Sequence record: PQ352352.2
Length of the DNA stretch: 64,000 bases
Strand: one strand, 5' to 3'
Origin: Escherichia phage vB_EcoM_PTE-Eco15
Positions within the stretch are counted from its first letter, which is position 1; the number at the start of each line of letters is the position of its first letter. This document shows, piece after piece, positions 31,994 to 32,391 of this stretch. Under the pieces are notes generated by a model. The model did not search any database. It was not told where the DNA came from and was given only the letters and a program-made list of their open reading frames with translations. Position numbers and translations under genes: made by a program.

Positions 31994-32391
31994 TTTACTG
32001 GAGATTCACTGCCTTAGTGTGAGCTAAAATCGAGGAGCCGTCGAACTGTCTGATTAATGATTTGCGAATCATTATAGTTTTAAGACCCCGGCAGTTTTAC
32101 GGTGTACCTCTTGAATGTTATTCTTATAGCGGCAAGTGCATGCTACCCCGAGGTGATGGCCAATCGGGAGTACGCCTCAAGGCCTATATATCCATCAGTA
32201 TATATCTTATCCTCGAGAAATCGAACCCGGAACCTTTAAGCTAACGGTGTGCAACAGATAAGAGCTATAAGGTATGATGACGGATTTATGGTTATCCTGG
32301 TCGTTAAATATCCAAAAACCTATGTTCCCCTTGAGGGCTTGCGCAGGCAATGCCAATAAGTCCTGCATTTTCATTTAAAAGAGAATTTATA

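Follow-up and report, generated by a model that had tools for sequence, protein, structure and literature searches.

Complex, conserved multi-stem RNAs have already been described from the intergenic regions of T4-like cyanophages, i.e. the orphan RNAs manA (RF01745) and wcaG (RF01761), which were found by comparative analysis and have no established function (PMC2864571). Because both lie upstream of metabolic genes, riboswitch roles have been suggested for them. T4-type phages also carry PeSL (promoter-early stem-loop) cassettes, i.e. small, non-coding elements located at indel boundaries and shuffled between phages (PMC2839356, PMC4122927), each being a composite terminator/promoter DNA signal (PMC4122927). 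The tRNA cluster of T4 gives rise to RNAs C and D (species 1 and 2), phage RNAs of around 120-140 nt derived from a longer transcript. EAR (epsC) and put of HK022 are structured RNAs of operons, located between cistrons in the case of EAR, whose target is the polymerase transcribing them, and in the hairpin ribozyme and the purine and lysine riboswitches a junction sets two arms side by side and a loop-loop or loop-loop-like contact locks them. The hairpin ribozyme and the kissing-loop riboswitches hold invariant nucleotides in their internal loops and junctions.

Here, we describe a predicted RNA of 149 nt that resembles manA and wcaG in being multi-stem, highly conserved and intergenic in T4-like phages, but matches neither of them in sequence or structure. 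While these two occur in cyanophages and marine metagenomes upstream of metabolic genes, the present RNA lies between rIII and the gene of a small basic protein. It differs from T4 RNAs C and D in its locus and in lacking the tRNA-like T-arm in which RNA C ends. These four RNAs are the nearest precedents in kind, and none of them is related. In contrast to the PeSL cassettes, the RNA is a multi-helix fold of 149 nt and contains no promoter or terminator. The hairpin ribozyme and the purine and lysine riboswitches are architectural analogues, the likeness being one of architecture only: there is no Rfam match, and the loop sequences differ. With EAR and put it shares no homology, and the comparison is one of analogy.

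The stretch of DNA analysed (hereafter the window; 64,000 nucleotides of Escherichia phage vB_EcoM_PTE-Eco15, accession number PQ352352.2) is a Tequatrovirus (T4-like) segment, which at this locus is 99.8 % identical to slur03, fPS-2 and VEc20. All genes of the region are on the plus strand, and the rIII stop codon (31993) and the conserved ATG of gene 30.9 (32383) are separated by a gap of 389 nt (31994-32382). As a preliminary description of this DNA had claimed, the gap lacks an ORF of coding character. It contains short ORFs only, and no reading frame is conserved, every frame of both strands being interrupted in some homologues; the 60-aa ORF at 32062-32244 (TTG start), whose composition had been judged implausible, exists but is broken by stops and frameshifting indels elsewhere. 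The reported rise in G+C content is real but modest, i.e. 0.446 at 32000-32349 vs 0.361 in the window (98th percentile of 350-nt windows), with nearby coding stretches (31350-31550 and 32400-32600) at 0.42-0.49. A small basic ORF and a strong terminator do come after the gap, as had been described, but the terminator follows 30.9 rather than preceding it.

Since no promoter-like or terminator-like site was found within 31994-32382, the RNA is part of the predicted rIII-30.9 message. Nor does the gap hold an early sigma-70 promoter combined with a terminator-like stem-loop, the composite by which a PeSL is defined (PMC4122927). A PeSL-like composite of terminator and early promoter is located at 32572-32651, 3' of 30.9, and the sole sub-threshold Rfam match in the area, Atu_C8 (31 bits vs a threshold of 50), mostly covers the terminator hairpin at 32572-32598. 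Just past the gp31 stop, upstream of rIII, the sequence TATAAATA (31598-31605) is the T4 late-promoter consensus, which would drive a late transcript across rIII, the RNA and 30.9. GGAG motifs at 32000, 32044 and 32167 could be RegB sites. No Pfam family matched gp30.9. The protein is annotated as 72 aa in RB27 and others, from an ATG equivalent to window position 32350; the sole start conserved across genera is that of MAKQAK at 32383, and the N-terminal extensions differ or are absent.

Within the gap, 32123-32271 very probably encodes a functional structured RNA. The single-sequence folding energy of the core is ordinary with respect to shuffles (z = -0.52), and the case for structure is therefore comparative. 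It is based on 18 distinct copies of the RNA (alignments A2 and A3, the covariance model R1 being built from A2), for which RNAalifold predicted a consensus of 43-44 pairs, 16-17 of them with compensatory double changes. In the structure with named helices (Table 1), 98.2 % of the cells hold standard pairs, vs 26-42 % in controls with the 3' partners slid by 1-3 columns, and 17 pairs are doubly changed, vs 2-5 in the slid controls. None of 500 shuffles matched the observed pairing, compensatory changes or covariation, and 2 of 500 matched the number of further pair types. Counting 49 pairs gave a similar result: 98.3 % standard-pair cells vs 27-42 % after sliding, compensatory double changes in 19 pairs vs 2-6, and no shuffle among 500 that equalled the observed value on four of the five measures (7/500 on further pair types). 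Around 25 distinct RNA sequences were collected, most of them more than 90 % identical, so that several of the covariation counts stem from few lineages, i.e. the Serratia group, EnC07, EcS1 and fHe-Yen9-01.

The changes themselves are instructive as to the fold and its strand. In Yersinia phage fHe-Yen9-01, the most diverged copy, P2 changes from GGC/GCC to GGU/ACC and P7 from CCCG/CGG to CCCA/UGG, both compensatory. The complementarity of loops L3 and L4, first spotted by eye and then counted, is present in 98.1 % of the cells with two doubly changed pairs (CG/UA and GC/UA). Most phages have CGAUGG/CCAUCG at this contact; the Serratia group has CUAUGG/CCAUAG, while EcS1 and fHe-Yen9-01 share CAAUGA/UCAUUG. 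A blind search for further covarying column pairs (25 sequences, noisy) added no tertiary contacts. All one-sided changes turn G-C or A-U into G-U when read on the plus strand, while the minus strand would give A-C mismatches, so that the plus-strand transcript is the molecule that folds.

The predicted fold is organised around a perfect four-way junction of P1, P2, P4 and P5 without a single unpaired linker nucleotide, and continues through P5 into a three-way sub-junction (P5/P6/P7) in which P6 is capped by GAAA. P1, of which the inner five pairs were those counted, differs in sequence in nearly every genus, the pairing always being kept, while the P5-P7 half (32205-32263) is the best conserved half of the RNA. 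Of 141 positions, around 77 do not vary in the 18-sequence set, and many of these are unpaired; the long invariant unpaired stretches are CGGCAAG, GGCCUAU, GACCCGGA and AGCUAACGGUGUGCAACAGAU. Model R1 finds one copy only in the 64-kb window.

Table 1. Coordinates in the window of the rIII-30.9 locus, of the predicted RNA and its elements, and of neighbouring modules
Feature	Position	Strand	Evidence or remark
gp31	31262-31597	+	Upstream neighbour of rIII
rIII	31745-31993	+	phrog_1457, lysis inhibition accessory protein (E = 5e-44); GenBank annotations
5' long hairpin	32037-32103; inner 8-bp stem-loop 32055-32074	+	Predicted fold, z = -1.5
Structured RNA domain, 149 nt, closed by P1	32123-32271	+	Covariance model R1, 173 bits, E = 9e-37
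P1	32123-32130 CUUAUAGC with 32264-32271 GCUAUAAG	+	4/5 inner pairs compensatory (AU/UA/GC/CG)
P2	32131-32133 with 32182-32184	+	Invariant in the 18-sequence set
Internal loop P2/P3, 8 x 6	AAGUGCAU 32134-32141, CUCAAG 32176-32181	+	Conservation
P3, long bulged arm	32142-32153 with 32160-32175	+	5 pairs with double changes
Loop L3, UGAUGG	32154-32159	+	6-bp kissing pseudoknot with L4
P4 hairpin	32185-32204; stem 32185-32191 with 32198-32204	+	99.2 % paired; 2 doubly changed pairs
Loop L4, CCAUCA	32192-32197	+	Complement of L3
P5	32205-32211 with 32257-32263	+	100 % paired; 3 doubly changed pairs
P6, 4 bp, GAAA tetraloop 32217-32220	32213-32216 with 32221-32224	+	100 % paired; 3/4 pairs doubly changed
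P7	32225-32229 with 32245-32250	+	Invariant among the 18 sequences
L7, 15-nt loop	32230-32244	+	Conservation
J7/5, GCAACA	32251-32256	+	Invariant hexamer; closes the three-way junction
Hairpin B, AUGNNN..UUGUAGGUUAUC..NNNCGUUAAAUA	32274-32312	+	Stem base covaries in 11 phages
Hairpin A, GUUCCCCUUGAGGGCUUG	32324-32341	+	Single exact site in the window
Gene 30.9	32383-32568	+	Small, very basic protein; phrog_1427; conserved MAKQ... ATG
Strong intrinsic terminator	32572-32598	+	3' of 30.9
Early-type promoter, TTTACA-17-TAGTAT	32623-32651	+	Ahead of 30.8

The preliminary description had proposed a structured RNA for the whole segment of around 350 nt. Structure is strongly supported, but for 149 of these nucleotides, with other helices than those suggested, while the remainder consists of separate hairpin modules. 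The complementary strings on which the proposal was based are present, i.e. CCTCAAGG at 32175-32182, CCTTGAGG at 32329-32336 and CCTCGAG at 32211-32217. Nevertheless, the helix drawn between CUCAAGG (32176) and CCUUGAG (32330) had to be given up. It would join one strand of an internal loop of the RNA (32176-32181) to a small hairpin outside it (32327-32337), and each of the two sides changes without the other (in PEi20, CCUCAAGG is kept and hairpin A reads CCUCGAGG). Hairpin A precedes the RNA in EnC07 and EcS1 and follows it in the other phages.

None of the 4,227 models of Rfam 15, which include SAM-I, the hairpin, hammerhead, twister, pistol and hatchet ribozymes, manA, wcaG and epsC, scored at or above its gathering threshold, whether on the 64-kb window or on 10 homologous loci. 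On the 171 nt around the RNA nothing matched even at E<=10, and in a 1.15-kb scan weak matches fell outside the RNA only. No match to the RNA was found in 5,426 E. coli genomes, nor any complementarity or similarity to host RNA in them, and plasmids gave 30-nt chance matches only. An exact 20-mer of the RNA was absent from 185,579 species genomes, in which a looser pattern matched nine times, none of the nine scoring with model R1 at E<=1. The RNA was not annotated in the GenBank records inspected, and a literature search returned no paper with its sequence or description, although a viral structured-RNA catalogue from 2023 (PMC10690425) might list it in bulk. The RNA is a new family with no detectable relative, the claim of newness concerning the family and not the mechanism.

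Several likenesses were pursued and dropped. By eye, the 3' half resembles SAM-I (UCUUAUC...ACCCGG.AACC...GGUG.GC...AGAUAAGAG); the SAM clan was absent at E<=10, and the covarying pairs of the RNA (CCCG with CGG-G) are unlike the SAM-I P3 pairing. A GGTTCGA-like string on the minus strand prompted a search for tRNA and tmRNA, in which ARAGORN found no genes in the whole window, and the wobbles fit the plus strand only. Homology to T4 RNAs C and D was addressed by running R1 with filters off on the T4 tRNA cluster (L087); the best match (9.9 bits, E = 0.12) was on the wrong strand and in the wrong place, and corresponds to neither rnaC nor rnaD. As regards a small protein, all six frames are interrupted in some homologues, and 1-nt and 2-nt indels shift the frame.

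Hypothetical proteins are annotated over the RNA in some GenBank records, i.e. U115_218 (L001, 1573-1755) and phi1_146043 CDS0050 (L002, 2511-2615). These calls are probably spurious, no frame being conserved. In two records, features beneath the 406-nt query, which runs from the rIII end to the 30.9 start, are named '1,4-alpha-glucan branching enzyme', an evident misannotation.

In a blastn search of the gap against 50,697 phage records, the whole segment was found in 179 records. In most T4-type phages, e.g. RB27, the gap matches in two pieces with the middle missing, while in phages of Klebsiella, Enterobacter, Raoultella, Edwardsiella and Serratia the match is confined to positions 126-260 of the query, at 85-96 % identity. 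Searching with the core alone retrieved the RNA from 410 GenBank phage records, the carriers being T4-like phages of Escherichia, Klebsiella, Enterobacter, Citrobacter, Serratia, Yersinia and Edwardsiella; JS98, Moon and slur03 are examples. Wherever the context was read (nine annotated GenBank records), the RNA was located in the rIII-30.9 spacer on the coding strand. Among IMG/VR loci anchored on rIII, model R1 scored in 19 of 47, always on the plus strand between rIII and 30.9, and 14 metagenome matches passed R1, several of them on contigs of T4-like length. Running the full model with filters off on the rIII loci that did not score revealed no hidden diverged copy.

In 13 of 15 loci, the RNA shares 81-99 % identity with the window copy, while rIII there is 64-84 % identical and its third positions around 50 %; the rIII proteins of the Klebsiella, Enterobacter, Raoultella, Edwardsiella and Serratia carriers share 64-77 % identity with that of the window. 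Between genera, identity ends abruptly on both sides of the core, at stem P1. Since the sequence of P1 varies by genus and yet pairs, conservation and the fold end at the same place. T4 and T4-type relatives are without the RNA, their slot being empty, as in RB27-like phages, or occupied by another small cassette. Close relatives sharing the same 30.9 protein differ in its presence or absence, and the order of the modules around it varies between phages. By these comparisons, the RNA is an optional cassette of T4-like Enterobacterales phages under strong purifying selection.

As to function, the explanation that we tentatively put forward as a whole is a conserved optional RNA cassette that binds a partner autonomously. 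The RNA folds independently, the L3 arm bending back so that its UGAUGG kisses the CCAUCA of the adjacent hairpin, and the fourth arm leading into a three-way junction that presents the GAAA hairpin and the conserved 15-nt loop. Invariant unpaired nucleotides and tertiary contacts would form a precise three-dimensional fold suited to recognising one conserved partner, or to catalysis. The RNA would act as an autonomous module, i.e. a stable RNA or RNP element on the transcript or processed from it, and its partner may be a conserved factor of the host or of the phage, the RNA serving for instance as a decoy in host takeover or anti-defence. That it is an autonomous partner-binding accessory RNA, possibly processed, is conceivable though doubtful, any action in trans being pure inference. 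Its own closing stem, the variable neighbours and distance to the 30.9 start (around 95-155 nt across phages, as read from aligned spacers) and its gain or loss unaccompanied by change in 30.9 make an autonomous module the most likely mode of action. Against this mode, the RNA is always in the same mRNA immediately upstream of 30.9, as would be the case for a cis-regulator. It is dispensable, T4 being without it.

This position, in the 5' untranslated region of 30.9 and on the same strand in every context read, would also suit a cis-acting leader, either riboswitch-like or operated by a protein, that senses a ligand or gp30.9 and sets the translation or stability of 30.9. The anatomy is aptamer-like: the closing P1 varies, nucleotides of the junctions and loops do not, and both a kissing loop and a GNRA hairpin are present. 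The RNA thus shows the conserved fold with covarying stems and invariant junction nucleotides that is generally asked of a riboswitch aptamer. Moreover, gp30.9 is small and very basic, and the orphan riboswitch candidates manA and wcaG of T4-like cyanophages are of comparable complexity (PMC2864571). Such a leader is nonetheless unlikely: no expression platform is visible, such as a terminator/antiterminator or a helix masking the ribosome-binding site that overlaps the 3' side of the aptamer, a terminator is absent from the gap, and the ribosome-binding site of 30.9 lies beyond around 95-155 nt of differing, shuffled hairpin modules. In addition, phages with and without the RNA have identical 30.9 N-termini, so that both 30.9 and its regulation are independent of the RNA. 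We therefore consider a classical riboswitch for 30.9 less likely than an autonomous module. The location between two cistrons would equally fit a processing site, at which a new class of self-cleaving ribozyme might cut the rIII-30.9 transcript. Small self-cleaving ribozymes are frequent in phage genomes, and the compact junction fold joins adjacent arms, like the four-way junction of the hairpin ribozyme, and has near-invariant unpaired nucleotides. However, with no known ribozyme model of Rfam 15 matched at E<=10, no recognisable catalytic core and a length of 149 nt, which is large for a small nucleolytic ribozyme, self-cleavage appears quite improbable. Antitermination in cis, by which host polymerase would pass the terminator after 30.9 in the manner of HK022 put or Bacillus EAR (the epsC motif in PMC2864571), is highly unlikely. 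It would accommodate an intercistronic structured RNA, as EAR is, with a strong terminator 300 nt downstream, and the binding of a highly conserved host machine would explain the near-identity across enterobacterial phage genera, but the RNA shows no similarity to the put or EAR models, relatives without it keep the same terminator and the downstream genes own a promoter.

The decayed insertion of host or foreign origin, which the preliminary description had offered beside a structured RNA, did not withstand the comparison. Recently inserted mobile or foreign DNA, or its decaying remnant, kept similar by horizontal transfer, would account for the patchy occurrence within genera, a slot that is empty or holds another cassette, a G+C content above the surroundings and the very high identity between genera. 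Yet compensatory changes occur in all eight helices, the wobbles are strand-specific, the RNA is more conserved than its flanking genes and its conservation stops at a covarying closing stem in which sequence varies and pairing is kept, the opposite of what a transferred DNA block would leave. Nor was there a match in the E. coli genomes, plasmids or bacterial genomes scanned, a transposon-type inverted or direct terminal repeat or an endonuclease gene nearby. In view of the covariation, this reading is already largely refuted and barely credible. Even less can be said for a small protein translated from the 60-aa ORF or from a 45-aa ORF at 32102-32239, which is next to impossible: the ORFs exist and hypothetical CDSs are annotated there, but every frame meets a stop in some homologue, and substitutions follow base pairing, not codons. 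Taken together, a non-functional insertion and a small protein have very little probability.

It is tempting to speculate that the RNA founds a new functional class with a specific activity, either a self-cleaving ribozyme or an aptamer for a small molecule or host factor, although this seems rather unlikely. As an aptamer, the RNA might be a decoy or sponge directed against a host defence or expression factor in a host-specific way. A specific activity, if true, would explain both the near-invariant unpaired nucleotides across genera and the strain-by-strain presence or absence.

T4-like phages are among the best-studied viruses, and yet this RNA is missing from Rfam 15. In complexity, its fold equals those of riboswitches and ribozymes, and it is near-constant while the neighbouring genes are saturated at silent sites. 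To be near-constant yet dispensable typically marks an accessory function on which success on particular hosts depends. Since natural, isogenic-like pairs of phages that differ in the RNA exist, and the site is empty in T4, the function of the RNA is directly testable. At minimum, annotation pipelines should drop ORF calls over the RNA; at best, it may represent a new RNA activity.

The gap as a whole is a mosaic of small RNA modules with the RNA domain at its centre. The long hairpin at its 5' side is retained by T4-type relatives without the RNA and, by eye, shows compensatory changes in locus L055 (AACUG/CAGUU to AAUUG/CAAUU). Hairpin B is conserved in at least seven phage genera, the base of its stem reading GAC/GUC, GUG/CAC, GUC/GAC or GUU/AAC in the 11 phages compared. 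In Klebsiella, Serratia and Edwardsiella phages it precedes the RNA, whereas in the window it follows it, and it occurs with or without the RNA, RB27 having hairpin B and no RNA; it is independent of the RNA. An alternative pairing of its loop (GGUUAUC) with the 3' strand of P5 (GAUAAG) looked compensatory in the Serratia group and was rejected, as SonariX and EnC07 break the pattern and hairpin B also occurs where the RNA does not. A degenerate copy of hairpin A is located at 32105-32119.

In relatives lacking the RNA, its slot (window 32120-32272) is often occupied by an unrelated conserved cassette of around 55 nt, TACTATCAYGCGTCAGAAAAAGGTTATCTGTCTAAGTCGTGGTTGG, as in L040, L042, L045, L046, L051, L053 and L055, the carriers including several Tequatrovirus-like and Dhakavirus/Mosigvirus-like contigs. 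A related copy sits nearer to 30.9 in L057. This cassette appears to be a further small structured module. Finally, a 33-nt module, CTGTCGAAAGAAGWTGAAAYTCAGAAGAACGTG, is located at 31677-31709 of the window, in the gp31-rIII spacer upstream of rIII, and downstream of rIII, between hairpin A and 30.9, in Moon (L008) and Klebsiella phage phi1_146043 (L002). Its occurrence on either side of rIII suggests that small non-coding modules move between neighbouring spacers.
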